Shown here: positions 40,275-53,259 of the stretch, one piece after another
Numbering within the stretch: the stretch's first letter is position 1
How the letters are laid out: each line of letters begins with the position of its first letter
DNA from: Heptranchias perlo
Taxonomy: Eukaryota
Length of the DNA stretch: 64,000 bases
Direction: 5' to 3'
NCBI RefSeq assembly: GCF_035084215.1
Contig: NC_090370.1
Span: forward strand, 2,976,001 to 3,040,000
The notes under the pieces: generated by a model
Seen by the model: only the letters and a program-made list of their open reading frames with translations
Databases searched by the model: none
What the model was told of the DNA's origin: nothing
Made by a program: the position numbers and the translations under genes

Positions 40275-40476
40275 GACAAATGTAAGGAATCTTACAACAC
40301 CAGGTTATAGTCCAACAGTTTTATTTGAAAATCACAAGCTTTCAGAGGCTTTCTCCTTCGTCAGGTGAGTGTCTCCGAAAGCTTGTGATTTTCAAATAAA
40401 ACTGTTGGACTATAACCTGATGTTGTAAGATACCTTACATTTGTCCACCCCAGTCCATCACCGGCATCTCCACATC
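40275..40476. mobile_element. Short palindromic Penelope insertion A (inverted pair of pLTR ends), 13-bp TSD
   Basis: TSD atgcagaattttc at 40262-40274 and 40477-40489; the arms are reverse complements of each other and match the 3' end of the 43.1-45.0 kb element. Confidence 0.88.
40332..40368 (-). ncRNA. Minimal type I hammerhead ribozyme motif (PLE pLTR), slightly decayed
   Basis: UCAC-CUGACGA-A-GGAGAAAGCCUCU-GAAA-GC-UU-GUGA. Confidence 0.6.
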
Positions 40477-41309
40477 ATGCAGAATTTTCAGCTGTGTTCA
40501 CTGGATAACAATCAGGAAAGAGAATGCTGGCTGATTTCCCCCCCCCCCCGCAACCCGATCCCTCTCCCTTAGAGGAAATGAGGCCAACTATAGCACCCCA
40601 AGTGTTGCCCTGGCTGAGATTGGCTAACTCAGCACAGACTAGACTGAGTACCTTCAACCTTCTTGGTTGATATGCCTTAGTGCCACACCAGGGGTTCCAT
40701 GCATTGATTATTCCAGTACATTCTGAACTTTACTGCTCTTAATTAGAACCATGTTACGAAAGGTTATGTTAAATGCTTTAATTACAATGTTAAAAAGACC
40801 ATCTACTTTCGTCTTGAAAACCAACAGCTCTGAATCAATCTGAACAACTCCGATTCCAAAGATCACCGATCAATTCTGTGGTGATCACAACATTCCTGCT
40901 TCCTGCCTGTGACCAGGAGAGTGATTTCAACTGGCAGAAAGGCTCAGTAAACAGCCTTTCATTTGTTGTTCCATTATATCTGATGGGAAGCTTCTTAAAG
41001 AGATAGGTCCCGAAATTACTCGGAACGCAATACTGATGCTTACACCAGGACCGTGCCCATCAATTCCCTCTAAAGTTGGCAGGGTCAGTGGGTAGGGGCA
41101 CCTTATTTGTGTGGCACTTGTGTCCTCCTGCTGCATTTCAGGCCCACTTCTGGCATCCACCTGCCCCATGCCCACAGAAATTGCGGTGTTGCTCTGCGTG
41201 TGAGAAGAGAAGGGGGTTACCCAGCCCCCCCCCCCCACTTGTGACCTAAGGGACTAATGTGACAAAGCTATTTTAACAACAAAATTTAAAGCTTTGGGGG
41301 TCCAGGCTG

Positions 41310-43107: not shown

Positions 43108-45002
43108 CAATTGTAAACAATTTTACAACACCAAGTTATAGTCCAGCAATTTTATTTTAAATTCATAAGCTTTCGGAGGCTTCCTCCTTCCTCAGGTGAA
43201 CGATGTCGAAATGAAATCCTCGAAATGAAATCGCATTTATAATTCACAGAACAATGCTTGGTGATTACAGACAGTTTTTTCAACTGCCCATTGCCAAGGC
43301 AATCAGTGTGCAGACAGACAGGTGTTACCTGCAAGGTCTCAGAATATACAAATCACCAAAAAAAACAACAAACAAAAAAAAACAGAGATAGAGAGGTAGA
43401 AACATAGAAAAGACAGCAACTGACCCGTTATATTAAAAACAGATAACATTTGTTCGCTGGTGGGGTAACGTGTAGCGTGACATGAACCCAAGATCCCGGT
43501 TGAGGCCGTCCTCATGGGTGCGGAACTTGGCTATCAATTTCTGCTCGACGATTTTGCGTTGTCGTGTGTCTCGAAGGCCGCCTTGGAGTACGCTTACCCG
43601 AAGGTCGGTGGATGAATGTCCATGACTGCTGAAGTGTTCCCCGACTGGGAGGGAACCCTCCTGTTTGGCGATTGTTGCGCGGTGTCCGTTCATCCGTTGT
43701 CGCAGCGTCTGCATGGTCTCGCCAATGTACCATGCTCTGGGGCATCCTTTCCTGCAACGTATGAGGTAGACAACGTTGGCCGAGTCACAGGAGTATGAAC
43801 CATGCACCTGGTGGGTGGTGTCCTCTTGTGTGATGGTGGTATCTGTGTCGATGATCTGGCATGTCTTGCAGAGGTTACCGTGGCAGGGTTGTGTGGTGTC
43901 GTGGACGCTGTTCTCTTGAAAGCTAGGTAATTTGCTGCGAACGATGGTCTGTTTGAGGTTGGGTGGCTGTTTAAAGGCGAGTAGTGGAGGTGTGGGGATG
44001 GCCATAGCGAGGTGTTCGTCGTCATTGATGACATGTTGAAGGCTGCGGAGAACATGGCGTAGTTTCTCCGCTCCGAGGAAGTACTGGACGACAAAGGGTA
44101 CTCTGTTGGTTGCGTCCCGCGTTAGTCTCCTGAGGAGGTCTATGCGATTTTTTGCTGTGGCCCGTCGGAACTGTCGATCGATGAGTCGAGCGTCATATCC
44201 CGTTCTTACTAGGGCGTCTTTCAGCGTCTGTAGGTGTCCATCGCGTTCCTCCTCGTCTGAGCAGACCCTGTGTATTCGCAGGGCCTGTCCATAGGGGATG
44301 GCCTCTTTGACGTGGTTAGGGTGGAAGCTGGAAAAGTGGAGCATCGTGAGGTTGTCTGTGGGCTTGCGGTAGAGTGAGGTGCTGAGGTGCCCGTCTTTGA
44401 TGGAGATTCGTGTGTCCAAGAAAGAAACTGATTCTGAGGAGTAGTCCATGGTGAGCTTGATGGTGGGATGGAACTTGTTGATGTTGTCGTGTAGTCTCTT
44501 TAGTGATTCCTTGCCGTGGGTCCATAGAAAGAAAATGTCGTCGATGTATCTGGTGTATAGTGTTGGTTGGAGGTCTTGTGCAGTGAAGAAGTCCTGCTCG
44601 AACTTGTGCATGAAAATGTTGGCGTATTGGGGTGCGAATTTGGTCCCCATGGCTGTTCCGTGTGTTTGGGTAAAGAACTGGTTATCGAAGGTGAAGACAT
44701 TGTGATCCAGGATGAAGCGGATGAGTTGTAGGATGGCGTCCGGAGATTGGCTGTTGTTGGTGTTGAGTATTGATGCTGTCGCAGCGATGCCGTCATCGTG
44801 GGGGATACTGGTGTATAGTGCCGAGACGTCCATCGTGGTGAGAAGTGTTCCTGGTTCAACTGGTCCGTGGGTGCTGAGTTTTTGTAGGAAGTCTGTAGTG
44901 TCGCGACAGAAGCTGGGGGTTCCCTGTACGATGGGTTTCAGGATGCCCTCGATGTATCCAGAGAGGTTCTCACACAGGGTTCCGTTGCCTGATACGATAG
45001 GG
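43108..45002 (-). mobile_element. Penelope-like retroelement (probably Neptune group), 5'-truncated, with an uninterrupted RT plus GIY-YIG frame and 3' pLTR
   Basis: ORF 43433-45076 contains PIVSG, DVSALYTSIPH, GTAMG, RYIDDIF, FLD, YRKPT, Cys linker CHGNLCKTC and GIY-YIG NVVYLIRCRKGC...WYIGET...RMNGHR; the first ~25 aa of the ORF are host flank. Confidence 0.93.
43161..43200 (-). ncRNA. Minimal type I hammerhead ribozyme motif
   Basis: UUCAC-CUGAGGA-A-GGAGG(AAG)CCUCC-GAAA-GC-UU-AUGAA, with one stem I mismatch. Confidence 0.65.
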
Positions 45003-47267
45003 CAGGCAGTAAATGTGGAACAGGTTGATGGAGAACACTTTGTAACGTGGAATCCTGGGCCACCTATCTGGTACATGATACTGTTTTGTAATCTTACCTT
45101 GGCAGGTTCCTTGCAGTGTTCCTTCTTCTCAATATCACATCCAATTTGACAGCCAACATTAGGCTGTTATGAATATCATGATGTTAAGAAACAGAAATAA
45201 AGATGGGCATGTAATAAACTGAAAACAGAGATGCAGCCTGAGGCAGTGATGCGGCGAGAATGACAAGCGTTATCAATCCCACAAATAGGTGTGGAGGAAT
45301 GAGATGATTAAGTCAATTATTCAGGCTATTTACTTGCTAATGCATACCTGTATTGAGAAGTTAATTACACAACAAATCACAGACAGTTTAGTGGTTTTGA
45401 TATGAAATTCAAATGATCTTTCTCCTTTACTGTACTAGCTTATGTAAGCTGACACCCAGCACAGTACCGAGAGCTGCATTGTCAGGGGTACTGTCCTTTG
45501 AATCATAGAATAGAATAGAATCACAGAATCATACAGCGCATGAGGACATTCGGCCCATCGTACCTATGCTGGCTCTTTGAAAGAGCTATCCAATTAGCCC
45601 CACTCTCCCCCCCCCCCCCCCCCCCGCTCTTTCCCCATAGCCCTGCAAATTTTTCCTTTTCAAGTATTTTTTTTAAGATGAGATGTTAAGCCAAAGTCCT
45701 ATCTGCCTGTTCTGATGGTTTGAGTGGACATTAAAGAAGAGCAGCGGAGTTCTCCCCGGTGTCCTGGCCACCATTTATCCCTCAACCAACATCATCAAAA
45801 CAGGTTAACTCGTCATTCATCTCATTTGCAAGACTAGAAGTGCTAAGTGACACAACACACCCATCGATTTAGCAGAAAATACCATCCTGACATTCAAGAG
45901 TTCAGGACAAGCCAGTACAAAGTCCACTGACCACAGGAACAGCAGAGCGGACAAAAGCTTGCAGCTCTGTGCATGAAAAAGAGAGCCAAGCAAGGGATGT
46001 AATAAAAAGAATTGATCTTCATTGCTGGGGTTTTGTCAGGGTGGACAGCTCTCTCGCATTTGGCAGGAGACTCCTATCCTCCCACCTCAGGGTCACAACA
46101 TCCCACATGGATGCACTGCACTGATAGTTCTCAGCACCTCTCATGACTTCTATTGCTGGGGAATGAGAACAAGAGAATTCAATAGAGTTAGGGCCATCCC
46201 AGTATTCAATGCACTAGTGAAGTCCCTCTTAAAACTAGAGGCTCGAATTGATTGTTGGTGATAGTAGGAGACAATCACTCAATAGGACCGATTTTCACCT
46301 TGGGTGGACATCAGCCGGGTGCTGGGCAGTGCGAGCTTGCCTTCCGCCCAATGTCCTCAGTGGCGTCCTCCATTTTGACGGCCAGGTCGTATCTGCATAA
46401 TGTCGGCGACCTGCATTGGTGTTCCTCCTGGCCCCACAAAAATCTTAGATTTACTTGTTTCCAGAGCAGCCTGCAGCAGTCCTTTAAGGACCACTGGTTA
46501 GACTGCTCAATCCCTAGTACCAGTGGGCAGAGCGTGCGCAGTGCATGTCCTGCTCATTGCGAGCTCAAAATTGTATCGGGGACGTACAACTGGTGGAGGA
46601 CCCTGATTTGCATATTATGAGTCGGCTCCCACCAGAAACAGGCAGATGCCTGGGCCACCCTTGTGAAGGCTCCAACAAAAATTCCAGTGTGTAGCTGGAA
46701 CAAGGATGTGTTCAACCCCATGATTTTCGGAGTGCTACCACCCCATTCCAGCCCGGAAATGGGGACAAAAATCACCCCTCAATGTGTTCATCTGACATTC
46801 CTCTGCTATTTGAGGCTTTAACCTAAACAACAGGCTAATTATTCCGTTAAAACAATGGATAGAAGAATGTCATGAGAATGTGTTAGGCATTTGTCTGCTA
46901 ATATACACAAGTCATTTCTGGACTAATAAGTCCTTTGTTCTGCCTGATGTGCTCTGTTCCAGGGATAGTACAGGCAAAGCTCATTATTACTATTCAGTTA
47001 CACTTTCTGCTGTCGCTATCCTATCAGTAAATTCAGAATTTGTTTCCAGTGGGGACATTGGATTGGCCAGAAACTCTATTGCATCAACGATGTGGGTGAT
47101 TGGCTGATAATTGGCCTATCTTGTAAGGGATCTTAGTGGAGCCTGACTGGCCACAAGCCAATAATAACACAGTATTTATAATGTGGAGATGCCGGTGATG
47201 GACTGGGGTTGACAATTGTAAACAATTTTACAACACCAAGTTATAGTCCAACAAATTTATTTTAAAT

Positions 47268-47306
47268 TCCACAAGCTTTCGGAGGCTTCCTCCTTCGTCA
47301 GGTGAA
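47268..47306 (-). ncRNA. Minimal type I hammerhead ribozyme motif
   Basis: UUCAC-CUGACGA-A-GGAGG(AAG)CCUCC-GAAA-GC-UU-GUGGA. Confidence 0.7.
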
Positions 47307-47454
47307 CGGTGTGGAAATGAAATTTTCGAATCCTTCGCATTTGAAAAACACAGAACAATGCCTGGTGACCACAGAACAATGCCGGGCAGTAATCACCAGG
47401 CATTGTTCTGTGTTTTTCAAATGCGAAGGATTCGAAAATTTCATTTCCACACCG

Positions 47455-47493
47455 TTCACCTGACGAAGGAGGAAGCCTCCGAAAGCTTGTGGA
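47455..47493 (+). ncRNA. Minimal type I hammerhead ribozyme motif
   Basis: ttcac ctgacga a ggagg aag cctcc gaaa gc tt gtgga. Confidence 0.7.
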
Positions 47494-48859
47494 ATTTAAA
47501 ATAAATTTGTTGGACTATAACTTGGTGTTGTAAAATTGTTTACAACAGTATTTATAAACATGGCAATGGCTTGCTATTTAAAGGGGCAGGCGTGGTTTAT
47601 GAAGAAGTGCTTTGCACAGTGCAGTTATGAAAATCGTGTTGAAACATGATACTTGTGCACTTGTGACAAAAATGGTGCCTGGCTCTCCTTCCTCAAAGAT
47701 AAAAGGTTTGGCAAACATGTTTTCATACCAATTTTCAAGAAGTCTCTCCAGAATCACATGAACATCTGAGGGAGATGCTGTCAGGCTCAAGAAAATCCTG
47801 GACACTCCCCAGCACTTGGCAGCATATTATAGACATGGCCTTCGGCTCTGATCATTTATTGGTGTATCAGTCTTTGGGAATGTAAGAGACACTCAGTAAA
47901 CTGCCCTTTGTTTTTCATAAACCCATCTAATGAATCATTTCCCACACACATCGAAACTCAGTTAAAAAACAGCAGCTAACAAGGAAAATATGAGGACACA
48001 GATTATCTGATTTGTTTAACTAATGAGACATGGAAAGCCATTGGCATGGAACTGAGCAACAGTTTGCTATCTCCTTGGGGAAAAGGATGCATGTTGCACA
48101 CTAATCATTGCAATCTGCCCTCAATATGATGCAACACTTCCCCAGTGCGATGAATATTCAGCTTGTCAGAAGGTCCTTGAATGACTGAAGGCTAGTGCTC
48201 TGGTTTAAGTCAGCTCTGTGTTTATACTTTCCTTCTTTTGATGCTCCTCATTCTTTCCCTTCATGCTTCAATGTTGACAGGCAAGACTGGAAGGCCTTGG
48301 TCGTTCCTTGGTGCCATATTCCAATCAGCCCACTCCGCCAGCCAGAACTCACAGCCGGCCAAAATGAAGGCCATCGATCATGTCCCAAGTCGCAGGGACA
48401 GGGTCATTAGCATTGCTGAGGTGGACATATCAGTGCCACCAGCCCCAATTGAGGCCTGGAAATTCGGTGGGGCTCCACGGCTCCAACGCAGCAGCTGCAG
48501 CCTAGGAAGGGCCTCATAGGAACAGAACGGCCCCAGCTCTACAGCTCCCAAAGGAGCTATTGAGCTATTCATTCAAGATAATCAGTCCCCTCCAGAATAG
48601 GTTACCTGCTTTCTTCGGCATTCTGGGACCTTTACTCGGCCCATAAGGCATACTGGGTAGAATTTCCTGGGGAAGTCCGGGAGCTATGCCAGCTGTACAC
48701 CCATGTATTAAGGCGGGGGAGGTAAATCTGTCCCCGTCTTCCTCTCCGTGGGATGGAATCAAGTTGCACCCCATTTTCTGCTACCCCTCACCCACCCCTT
48801 CGTCAACATTGCCTGAGATGTGCCCATCGCAAGGACAGAATTTTGGCCCCTTGACTAGT

Positions 48860-49130: not shown

Positions 49131-50138
49131 ACCTAATTACATAGGAACAGGAGTCAAAATGACACGGCTCTAAAATAAAAATAAAACAGTCGAAAGTCAA
49201 TGACTCCGACCGAGAGAATCCAACATAAAAATCAGAAAGGTGGCTCCTATCTGAGGGGGGCTGTGCGCAAGGATTAAAGCCCACTGATCGTGGGTGCTGC
49301 TTAACTTGGGCCCCCTCCAAGCAGAGACCCAGGAAATTGAGACAGGAAGCATGGTGATGCCACACCCACCTCATTTGCATGGCTATTGAATATTAATGCC
49401 AGCTCCAGGTACAAACACTACGCCCATCCTTGATTTGGGGTGGGAGGTGGGGGGGTCCCCTGGAGGTATGGAGGTAACACAAAGGGCAGAGACCTGGTGT
49501 AATGGCTCTTTGCCCCCTTTCCTTTGTTTGGAAAATCAGCCCAAAAGTGTTGTGTTGACAGTGGTATCACCAATTATGCCCCTAAAATAAATACACAATT
49601 ACCTTATGTGCAAATTGCATTGCAAAACAGAACCTAGCTACTGTAACTCATAATCTGCAACCAGTAAGGACCACACAGATTACTTTTAACCAACAGATGT
49701 TGGTACTAGCTGCATCTCTACTGCAACCTGCATCATTACTGCAACCTGTGTAACTGATTGTTTAGAGCACTGTAGAAGAAAGACTTGCATTTGTCCAGCG
49801 CCTTTCACAACCTCAGGACGTCCCAAAGCGCATCGTAGCCAATGAAGTAGAAGTGAAGAGAATTAAACAAAGACAAACTTGGAGACCAAGCAATCCAATG
49901 GATAAGTAGCCCCATCATTGACAGCAATTCATTTATTACATAGAATGTACAGCACAGAAACAGGCCATTCAGCCCAACAGGTCCATGCCGGTATTTATGC
50001 TCCACACAGTATTGGACTCTTACAGCTGCTGGAGAGGAGACTTTAATCCCAATATGTGGAGATGCCGGTGATGGACTGAGGTTGACAAATGTAAACAATC
50101 TTACAACACCAGGTTATAGTCCAACAATTTTATTTGAA

Positions 50139-50179
50139 ATTCACAAGCTTTCGGAGGCTTCCTCCTTCGTCAGGTGAAT
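50139..50179 (-). ncRNA. Minimal type I hammerhead ribozyme motif
   Basis: AUUCAC-CUGACGA-A-GGAGG(AAG)CCUCC-GAAA-GC-UU-GUGAAU, with a 6-bp stem I. Confidence 0.72.
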
Positions 50180-51495
50180 GTCAGGAAATCCTTGAACGTT
50201 TCGCATTTATATTCAGAGAACAATACCTGGTGATTACAGATAATCTTTCCAACTGCCCGTTGTCAAGGCAATCAAAGTGTTCAGACAGAGAGGTGTTACC
50301 TACAGGACCACCGAATATACAAACGGCCAGAACACAAAACAGAGAGAGAGAGGGAGAAACATCCAAAAGGAAGAGAAAGACAGAAAATGACCCGTTGAAT
50401 TAAAAACAGATAACTTTTATTCGCTGGTGGGGTTACGTGTAGCGTGACATGAACCCAAGATCCCGGTTGAGGCCGTCCTCATGGGTGCGGAACTTGGCTA
50501 TCAATTTCTGCTCGACGATTTTGCGTTGTCGTGTGTCTCGAAGGCCGCCTTGGAGTATGCTTACCCGAAGATCGGTGGCTGAATGTCCTTGACTGCTGAA
50601 GTGTTCCCCGACTGGGAGGGAACCCTCCTGTTTGGCGATTGTTGCGCGGTGTCCGTTCATCCGTTGTCGCAGTGTCTACATGGTCTCGCCAATGTACCAT
50701 GCTCCGGGGCATCCTTTCCTGCAACGTATGAGGTAGACAACGTTGGCCGAGTCACAGGAGTATGAACCATGTACCTGGTGGGTGGTGTCCTCTTGTGTGA
50801 TGGTGGTATCTGTGTCGCTGATCTGGCATGTCTTGCAGAGGTTGCCGTGGCAGGGTTGTGTGGTGTCGTGGACGCTGTTCTCCTGAAAGCTGGGTAATTT
50901 GCTGCGAACGATGGTCTGTGACTCAGCCAACGTTGTCTACCTCATACGTTGCAGGAAAGGATGCCCCGGAGCATGGTACATTGGCGAGACCATGCAGACA
51001 CTGCGACAACGGATGAACGGACACCGCGCAACAATCGCCAGACAGGAGGGTTCCCTCCCAGTCGGGGAACACTTCAGCAGTCAAGGACATTCAGCCATCG
51101 ATCTTCGGGTAAGCATACTCCAAGGCGGCCTTCGAGACACACGACAACGCAAAATCGTCGAGCAGAAATTGATAGCCAAGTTCCGCACCCGTGAGGACGG
51201 CCTCAACCGGGATCTTGGGTTCATGTCACGCTACACGTAACCCCACCAGCGAATAAAAGTTATCTGTTTTTAATTCAACGGGTCATTTTCTGTCTTTCTC
51301 TTCCTTTTGGATGTTTCTCCCTCTCTCTCTCTCTGTTTTGTGTTCTGGCCGTTTGTATATTCGGTGGTCCTGTAGGTAACACCTCTCTGTCTGAACACTT
51401 TGATTGCCTTGACAACGGGCAGTTGGAAAGATTATCTGTAATCACCAGGTATTGTTCTCTGAATATAAATGCGAAACGTTCAAGGATTTCCTGAC

Positions 51496-51535
51496 ATTCA
51501 CCTGACGAAGGAGGAAGCCTCCGAAAGCTTGTGAT
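51496..51535 (+). ncRNA. Minimal type I hammerhead ribozyme motif
   Basis: attcac ctgacga a ggagg aag cctcc gaaa gc tt gtgat. Confidence 0.7.
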
Positions 51536-51863
51536 TTTCAAATAAAATTGTTGGACTATAACCTGGTGTTGTAAGATTGTTTACATTTGTCAACCTCAGT
51601 CCATCACCGGCATCTCCACATATTGGGATTAAAGTCTCCTCTCCAGCAGCTGTAAGAGTCCAATACTGTGTGGAGCATAAATACCGGCATGGACCTGTTG
51701 GGCTGAATGGCCTGTTTCTGTGCTGTACATTCTATGTAATAAATGTAATCCCAATAGTCTGGCCTTTTTTCAAATTTAGATTCTATTGGTGAACAGATAG
51801 CATGCCAACCCACTGTGCCACCTGGTACCCCCCCCATATTATATTTTTATAAGTGCCATTTGT

Positions 51864-52212
51864 TTTTTTATTTCAAAATATACTTTATTTCATAAAATTT
51901 AAAGATACCACAAATCCAAGGCGATACAATTCAAAACAATACAACACGGATCGTACACAATACTATCCAATATTACAATTTAAACATAGTACATATCTTA
52001 TAATACATGGTGTGCAATACAGGGTGGAGTGGCCTTACACGATGGCCTTTCCCCATCGCGCCTTTGCGTAGGTCGCACCTCGCTTCAGTGCGTCCCGCAG
52101 CATGTACTCCTGGACCTTGGAGTGTGTCAGTCGGCAATACTTGGTCGTGGACAGCTCCTTGGACCAAAGGGCCTCCTTCACTGGGTTGAGGGTCTTCCAG
52201 CCGCAGTTGATA
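51864..52212 (-). mobile_element. Tx1/L1-clade LINE 3' end
   Basis: Reverse strand reads INCGWKTLNPVKEALWS..KELSTTKYCRLTHSKVQEYMLRDALKRGATYAKARWGKAIV*, then an AT-rich 3' UTR with AATAAA and an A tail. Confidence 0.75.
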
Positions 52213-52817
52213 TCTATCTCAGAAGTGGCATTTGTGGTGGATTAAGGATTTGCCTTGTTTCAAATCATAAAAAGGCTCTTTGTGGGATGTTTGGTAGTCA
52301 GTCAGCTGGTGATCACTTTAAATTGGTTCCTGCTTCCTGGGGTCAGTTTGCATATGAATTGCACGCGTAATTATATGAATCCATGTCACTGGCTGGTTTG
52401 CAGATTGCTATTTCAAAGGGGATGAGTCATCTCCGTCTAGGTGGACTGGTTAATGAGTGTTTGATGCAAAGGTCACCCAGGTGGTAGAACCAAATGATAT
52501 TATTACCGCAAAAAGGAGACAGAGATAATCGTTTTTGAGATTGCTATTCAGCCGACTAGAGGGAAAGCTGTCACTCCTTGTATGAGAGTTGCTTTGTTCC
52601 ACAGGTATCAACATTTTATCAGGAAAATCTATCAGACAGATTGTGTGCCTTGAAACCATTTTTCGTTGACAAGTGAATTTAATTGTGAAAGAGAGCTCTT
52701 GATATTCCATTGTCTTAGTTCGAACTTCAAGATGTGGAGATGCCGGTGATGGACTGGGGTTGACAATTGTAAACAATTTTACAACACCAAGTTATAGTCC
52801 AGCAATTTTATTTTAAA

Positions 52818-52856
52818 TTCACAAGCTTTCGGAGGCTACCTCCTTCCTCAGGTGAA
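52818..52856 (-). ncRNA. Minimal type I hammerhead ribozyme motif
   Basis: UUCAC-CUGAGGA-A-GGAGG(UAG)CCUCC-GAAA-GC-UU-GUGAA. Confidence 0.72.
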
Positions 52857-52878
52857 CGATGCGGAAATTTCCGCATCG

Positions 52879-52917
52879 TTCACCTGAGGAAGGAGGTAGC
52901 CTCCGAAAGCTTGTGAA
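52879..52917 (+). ncRNA. Minimal type I hammerhead ribozyme motif
   Basis: ttcac ctgagga a ggagg tag cctcc gaaa gc tt gtgaa. Confidence 0.72.
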
Positions 52918-53259
52918 TTTAAAATAAAATTGCTGGACTATAACTTGGTGTTGTAAAATTGTTTACAATTCGAACTTCAAAGCAGAGAGCGAGCATAACT
53001 GTTGCCCTTTATCGAGGCTCCAGAATGAATCAACAAGCAGTTAAACAAGGTGGGTCTAGACGGACCATTCCATGAATATCCAAATTCATGTAGATGCTCT
53101 TCCTCACAGGCATTTATTCTAAATTACAAGGATGATTGATGTTTCAAGTTTATTATTTTGAAACGGGTCTGAAGTACGGGTGAGAAATCAAATATTCTTT
53201 TACTGTAATCTATCTGCTATGTTTGATTTTGCTTCGGTTTAGTTTTACTCTTAGTCTTT

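Follow-up and report, generated by a model that had tools for sequence, protein, structure and literature searches.

How can a truncated Penelope-like insertion acquire a mirror-image second arm that runs through its own tail into an inverted copy of the adjacent host DNA? This question is raised by a locus of Heptranchias perlo, which we analyzed within a stretch of 64,000 nt, here called the window (NC_090370.1, positions 2,976,001-3,040,000, forward strand). Self-BLAST of the window gave one inverted match of 830 columns (99.0%) between 49930-50757 and 51745-50916, in agreement with a first-pass annotation that had described a palindrome with these arms around a 158-nt loop. Between the arms there are 6 substitutions and one 2-nt GA indel, which corresponds to the count given there, and every one of these differences lies inside the element part. 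Outside the element, 49930-50054 is the exact reverse complement of 51621-51745 (125 bp, zero differences); the last part of the insert is an inverted copy of the host DNA to its left. The 11-bp target site duplication (TSD) that had been annotated was also recovered: it is intact, at 50044-50054 and 51746-51756, and TAATCCCAATA is found in the window in forward direction at 50044 and 51746 only and in reverse direction at 51621 only. Its last base may be a 1-nt match to the element, as matches of the family start one base earlier. The locus deviates from the canonical inverted layout of Penelope-like elements (PLEs), in which a tail-less arm abuts the TSD: here the tail is present on both arms and 125 bp of flank lie between the second arm and the TSD. 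The features are as follows.

49930-50054, plus strand: host flank that served as probable template, delimited by self-BLAST and alignment, holding the 3' end of a LINE-like repeat and the left TSD
49935-50007, minus strand: 3' end of the LINE-like repeat, presumably CR1, as we take it from a protein motif; contig loose ends at 51739-51741
50044-50054, plus strand: left TSD, TAATCCCAATA, whose 3' end would be the primer
50055-50919, minus strand: first arm, an 865-nt 5'-truncated Penelope-like copy (ORF end, 3' region and tail), the putative first cDNA
50055-50087, minus strand: tail of about 33 nt, normally found on a single arm
50149-50173, minus strand: minimal hammerhead-like core of the left arm (motif scan)
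50754-50757, plus strand: ACAG, the pairing partner at the turn
50758-50915, minus strand: 158-nt loop that continues the first arm (alignment)
50914-51237, plus strand: GIY-YIG endonuclease fragment in an open frame (Pfam PF01541, E 0.0003, 21.4 bits; cut-off 22.6)
50916-50919, plus strand: CTGT, the 4-nt turn match common to both arms; contig loose ends at 50916 and 50919
50916-51620, plus strand: second arm, a sense copy of the first arm including the tail (self-BLAST and alignment)
51502-51526, plus strand: minimal hammerhead-like core of the right arm (motif scan)
51621-51745, minus strand: exact inverted copy of host 49930-50054 (alignment)
51746-51756, plus strand: right TSD, joined without microhomology and followed by single-copy host DNA

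The first arm is a truncated copy of an abundant Penelope-like family, whose 16-nt tail motif has 56,120 matches in the genome. The family copy L116 contains a 902-aa ORF with an RVT_1 match (E 3.3e-10), and the GIY-YIG fragment of the window, which scores just below the Pfam curated cut-off, represents the C-terminal part of an ORF of this type; the full 902-aa ORF of L116 gave no GIY-YIG row in the same Pfam search. The predicted organization is that of an endonuclease-bearing PLE, a single ORF with the reverse transcriptase (RT) followed by GIY-YIG. A motif scan detected the minimal hammerhead-like core in all five window copies, and an Rfam search at E 1 returned no match for it; this class of minimal hammerhead motifs has been described (PMC4209133). 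In tandem copies the tail stops immediately ahead of the ORF start, and partial tandems are present in L115-L117. By resemblance of this layout to PAc (PMC11167929), the family may be called Poseidon-like.

The family shows several further peculiarities. Head-to-head palindromes that are very young, about 6.3 kb in size and built of full-length arms 98-99.8% alike are located at L115, L116 and L117 (also L091, L097 and L182), and L116 contains two identical 902-aa frames. Most short copies (47177-47545, 52728-52970 and 40275-40482 in the window and many loci elsewhere) stop 113-128 nt from the tail end. This point is the 5' side of the hammerhead-like core, and one exact turn there occurs 218 times, which reflects either a hot spot or a propagated hairpin. 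Before the tail, the junctions of L003-L040 mostly show ATGA or TGA, the sequence with which the element itself continues into its start codon, which suggests that a few bases of primer-template pairing may take place; the full 5-nt match is carried by 16,199 tails. Copies inserted in tandem arrays of the 42-bp type were found in L115 (45-1743 and 8025-9036) and L114, and the window contains tandem arrays at 8112-8583 and 62462-62733, with 31-bp and 34-bp units.

To judge the second arm, the ordinary inverted copies of the family have to be considered. An adjacent inverted arm is present at 42 of 63 tail ends, a set in which 9 rows belong to loci that had been selected through a single turn motif and in which 5 of the 42 arms are ambiguous. 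Most of these arms (37 of 42) end 20-42 nt short of the tail end and mostly right at the TSD, so that the family has the one-sided tail of about 33 nt and the inverted terminal structure of PLEs. One-sided tails are known for Penelope elements (PMC3846280; PMC8557442) and have a length of 30-40 bp in endonuclease-bearing Penelope/Poseidon elements (PMC3846280; PMC8557442; PMC11167929). TSDs are short, 11-14 nt in 37 of the 39 that could be called, and the 11 nt of the present locus fall into this range. In 8 of 37 ordinary copies the tail-less arm exceeds the tailed arm by more than 10 nt, and in L124, L126 and L127 by about 300-650 nt. As the tail-less arm can be longer than the tailed one, it is not a copy of the latter but probably a separately primed cDNA. 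Its most plausible interpretation is a second cDNA whose priming took place at the other nick, from an inner start site, which agrees with the two start sites and the two-strand extension shown for PAc (PMC11167929). At L124, L126, L127 and L120 a tail-less arm 100-650 nt longer than the tailed one abuts a TSD of 12-14 nt; these four loci would lend genomic support to priming at both nicks from two start sites.

The turn of the present palindrome could be located precisely. The left arm together with the loop is colinear with the window copy at 43108-43953 in an alignment that is unbroken up to 50919, which assigns the loop to the left arm. Both arms accommodate CTGT at 50916-50919, which pairs with ACAG at 50754-50757, 162 nt inside the first arm. 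The earlier reading, a loop that continues the left arm and a turn on a 4-nt microhomology, is borne out by this alignment. The second segment is complementary to the putative first cDNA and starts inside it, which is the layout of an R2-type snap-back. The far junction at the TSD (51745/51746) is without microhomology, a combination in keeping with a turn that was primed and a TSD end that was ligated. Ordinary joins of two cDNAs also have overlaps of 2-7 nt, so the 4-nt match by itself does not single out self-priming. When up to 1 mismatch is allowed, the genome contains 1 match to the turn sequence, which is thus unique. With no second copy of the junction in the genome, we rejected the idea that this turn stems from a hairpin source RNA from which other copies also derive. 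The turn of L069 occurs 218 times; recurrent turns thus exist and the uniqueness test does not generalise to other loci.

Two questions concern the 125 bp behind the second tail: do they belong to the element, and were they brought from elsewhere? Among 41 other matches listed, with the best 40 of 3232 candidates scored, none covers more than 12 nt of the 125 bp, and the flanks of the tails differ in all loci printed in the comparison of tail junctions (L003-L040). We therefore rejected the possibility that the 125 bp are part of the element consensus, which the first-pass annotation had named as a finding that would overturn its model. A 3' transduction from a distant source was discarded as well, because the 125 bp are local flank and absent from the other listed matches (40 of 3232 scored). 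The right flank is single-copy, and a genome search with it yielded one candidate, the present locus, and no empty allele. The tail variant GAGG, which had been put forward as a mark shared by the arms, is indeed absent from the three window copies compared (near 40474, 47182 and 52733). It is found at 146 exact places in the genome, which makes it a subfamily variant and therefore weak evidence of copying by itself. Decisive here is that 125 bp of local flank are attached in register to the tail, next to a single-copy right flank and together with a unique turn.

A comparison of the arms with 32 young copies of the family points in the same direction, if weakly. Each arm has 3 private changes, and one change, present in 1 of the 32 young copies, is common to both. 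The distance between the arms is 6 and the nearest other copy is 7 changes away; older copies carry matching alleles at 3 of the 6 sites where the arms differ. Both arms are 4 changes away from the family majority, with values of 3-15 for other young copies. The absence of changes in the 125-bp copy is not significantly lower than the number of changes in the arms (P = 0.34). The data would fit one template and equal ageing, and the case for monophyly of the arms is weak (6 versus 7). Taken with the junctions, the second arm of the present locus was likely copied from the first, through the junction.

If such read-through is a property of the insertion process, the same anatomy should be present elsewhere, and a genome scan for PLE palindromes that extend into the inverted flank and end at a TSD had been proposed. 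In five pattern searches we looked for pairs of exactly matching tails that face outward at a distance of 143-297 nt; the size class of the present locus lies outside this gap class. The searches gave 99 matches (13, 11, 41, 18 and 16), of which 98 were examined. At 12 of the 98 the inverted repeat runs at least 12 nt into sequence other than the start of the element's ORF. L055 (an older palindrome with a younger one inside), L161 and L162 (one tandemly duplicated complex) and L170 (a satellite array) were removed from this count, and 8 of the 98 are short double-tailed palindromes that run into host flank, 6 of them with a TSD. L043 has the anatomy of the present locus, with 30 nt of read-through, 20 nt of filler and a 12-nt TSD. 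In L051, L063, L064, L069 and L075, 14-151 nt of inverted flank are followed by a third, tail-less arm, which ends at -32 to -35, and then by a TSD of 12-13 nt; in L051 and L069 the tail-less arm begins with a repeat of the turn sequence. L058 has a tail-less arm too, and its second arm begins 7-10 nt 5' of the point where the first one ends; no TSD was found at this locus. L065 contains 372 nt of inverted flank, and no TSD was found within about 4 kb. Of three widely spaced tail pairs (L112-L114), L112 and L113 show no read-through and L114 is located within a tandem array. Near-identical arms are more frequent at read-through loci than at other double-tailed loci (8 of 9 versus 18 of 38, P = 0.03, with L055 included).

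As a substitute for the empty allele, we looked for other copies of the interrupted host repeat. At the fetched loci this repeat is contiguous across the TSD in 9 other copies for L063 and in 15 for L075; no such copies were found for the other five loci tested, the present one included. The TSDs of the sister loci and the contiguous host repeats argue that read-through is a recurrent by-product coupled to insertion, so that the proposed scan has found its anatomy again at six TSD-bearing loci. With 9 clean cases against 56,120 tail motifs, which is a lower bound, its frequency would amount to roughly 1 per several thousand tail ends.

Two of the excluded or complex loci deserve a description of their own. 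In L055, a younger double-tailed palindrome sits in the center of an older palindromic copy that has its own TSD. At L170 and in L187 (5587-9951) and L188 (1-8064), a double-tailed palindrome is located at the axis of a multi-kb inverted segment in a 207-bp satellite array, and near-identical short copies are found at the other turning points. This looks like an inverted triplication centered on the hairpin of the element, or like an assembly problem.

Taking all starting routes together, we consider it likely that the second arm arose by copy-back during insertion. As its trigger we lean towards self-priming of the cDNA end at the 4-nt match CTGT/ACAG, which is the simplest start because a remnant of a second cDNA is lacking here and the turn is the sole microhomology. 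The endonuclease would have cut both strands about 11 nt apart, the distance given by the observed TSD. Of the two start sites of the family, the outer one would then have been used for reverse transcription primed by the 3' end at 50054, with the tailed cDNA of 865 nt as product; its structure is seen at the locus, and the priming step is modeled on the biochemistry of PAc (PMC11167929). The free end CTGT may have paired with ACAG 162 nt back and been extended by 703 nt on the cDNA itself, across the 11-nt overhang and a further 114 nt into host DNA opened by resection or displacement. Finally, the strand would have been end-joined to the other cut end, at the junction without microhomology that is now observed, with the TSD kept. 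For the extension step we slightly favor a host repair polymerase over the RT of the element, by analogy with yeast (PMC11724301). The product is a dead, truncated copy. Arguments for the self-priming route are the identity of arms and flank, the loop continuing the first arm, the TSD, the unique turn and the sister loci. The core of the earlier proposal, a snap-back followed by read-through into the flank, is thus retained with some reservation, on the basis of a 125-bp segment that is not consensus, a unique turn, an intact TSD and the recurrence of the structure.

It is possible, if on balance doubtful, that the RT itself, as a dimer on both nicks, folds back the cDNA and continues across its own junction by displacing host DNA. 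In that case the three-part insertions (tailed arm, its copy with the inverted flank, tail-less arm and TSD) would be trapped intermediates, revealing the standard inverted end as a second cDNA from the inner start site, and PLEs would be a recurrent source of hairpins of host DNA.

Among the alternatives, a two-ended start of copy-back fares best, but we rate it as unlikely for this locus. Here both nicks would prime a cDNA, the 3' ends would anneal at CTGT/ACAG, and the sense strand would slip onto the first cDNA, run through tail and flank and join the TSD, while the second cDNA is lost. This is in line with the independent origin of the tail-less arms in ordinary copies, where they can be the longer ones, with L051, L063, L064, L069, L075 and L058, which keep a tail-less arm after the inverted flank, and with PAc, for which cleavage and extension of both strands and two start sites have been shown (PMC11167929). 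The tail-less arm is retained by five of the six sisters with a TSD, and the duplicated turn of L051 and L069 would fit a switch between two cDNAs better than plain self-priming; the second-arm start of L058, 5' of the first arm's end, also speaks against the latter. At the present locus, however, no remnant of a tail-less arm exists, and about 670 nt would have to be removed exactly to the TSD. Judged by its letters, the final sequence here would be the same for priming by the cDNA's own 3' end and by a second cDNA.

Could the second arm have been added later? A plain truncated insertion followed by a template switch during replication or repair, adding the second arm and the flank, appears improbable to us. 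Inverted segments centered on hairpins without a nearby TSD do exist, namely L065 with its 372 nt and L170 with its multi-kb segment in a 207-bp satellite. However, both new junctions would have to hit the 5' end of the element and the first base of the TSD exactly, the arms share one derived change only and are no further from the majority than young copies are, and six sister loci tie read-through to the TSD. Still less probable is an RNA route, in which a read-through transcript ending at the tail of the neighboring LINE was reverse transcribed into the same site. The end of the host-flank repeat comprises 73 bp of the LINE-like repeat, and the copy ends 5-6 nt past its natural 3' end, but re-insertion at the exact unresolved junction with one TSD only would be needed, the sister read-throughs of L063 and L075 end mid-repeat, and no other copy of the flank is among the listed matches (40 of 3232 candidates scored). 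The LINE tail as cause of the end point was demoted to a minor rival.

Least probable of all is a fold-back chimera or another assembly or read artefact: no listed contig crosses the turn or the whole stretch, and the 174-nt contig of runs X1 and X3 at 51717-51890 has 29 nt on the short side of the junction between flank copy and TSD, under a bridging rule of 31 nt, and comes from one sample, possibly the assembly's own source, but it shows 0 differences in both runs of the best-holding organism, the 7 differences between the arms include private changes in symmetric number, and an intact TSD and similar structures at other loci also speak against an artefact. A contig of run X16, from another organism, matches 51748-51863 with 12 differences and is preceded by 9 unmatched letters; it fits an empty site, and with these letters unread it was not counted as evidence; 17 small-share runs were likewise given no weight.

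Several known systems resemble the present locus. PLE and Poseidon copies with an inverted 5' copy (PMC3846280; PMC8557442; PMC11167929) share with the present family the predicted ORF of RT and C-terminal GIY-YIG in full copies, a candidate hammerhead-like motif, head-to-head arms, a short TSD and a tail of about 33 nt, whereas the present locus has the tail on both arms and a second arm that runs on, ahead of the TSD, into host flank in reverse complement. Self-priming has been proposed for Penelope palindromes (PMC3846280), and junctions formed by a cDNA end that snapped back before 5' joining make up an established class among R2 insertions (PRINT; PMC11371274). There, too, the cDNA 3' end primes on the cDNA itself or on nearby target DNA before the upstream end is joined, but R2 PRINT is an engineered system in human cells and the present locus is a natural germline insertion by a different enzyme class. 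Moreover, copying probably proceeded here through the 3' junction into the downstream flank, for which we found no report in the available text on R2 PRINT (PMC11371274).

Inverted duplications of 52-220 bp have been described beside L1 insertions (3-4 cases, 0.3-0.4%; PMC10191854), together with inverted duplications that keep a TSD feature and fold-backs of the primed end (10.1101/2024.12.14.628481, Figures 4-5) and 22 local templated insertions (10.1101/2024.08.27.596794). These resemble the present locus in the short inverted host copy beside a retro-insertion, the TSD feature and the fold-back of the cDNA-bearing end. However, the inverted duplications of L1 sit on the unprimed end and its primed-end fold-backs are chromosome-scale and unhealed, whereas here the primed end would have folded back, duplicated the whole insert and the flank and healed at its own TSD. 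Double-strand breaks in yeast lead to foldback templated inversions by a route of foldback plus end-joining (PMC11724301), likewise with microhomology-primed synthesis at one end and end-joining at the other, but these are mostly 5-34 bp long and involve no retroelement, in contrast to the 828 nt of the present locus. In the main texts covered we found no account of a second Penelope arm that passes through the tail and the host flank as far as a TSD; comparable cases may be present in the supplements of the two L1 preprints. With R2 snap-backs and L1 inverted duplications described and clean cases this rare, the novelty and weight given to the structure in the first-pass annotation were overstated.

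The present locus is real, recurrent and rare, and a variant of known snap-back and fold-back outcomes. As a force in the genome, read-through is minor, since the clean cases are few among the tail motifs and mostly 14-151 bp of host DNA are duplicated. The formation of the tandem and inverted ends of PLEs has been stated to be open (PMC8557442), and the loci described here separate two look-alike processes: one gives a tail-less arm by independent priming, the other an arm made by copy-back and extending across the junction. They yield sequence-level predictions for the existing in vitro PAc system and give clues to how Penelope elements build their mirror-image ends.
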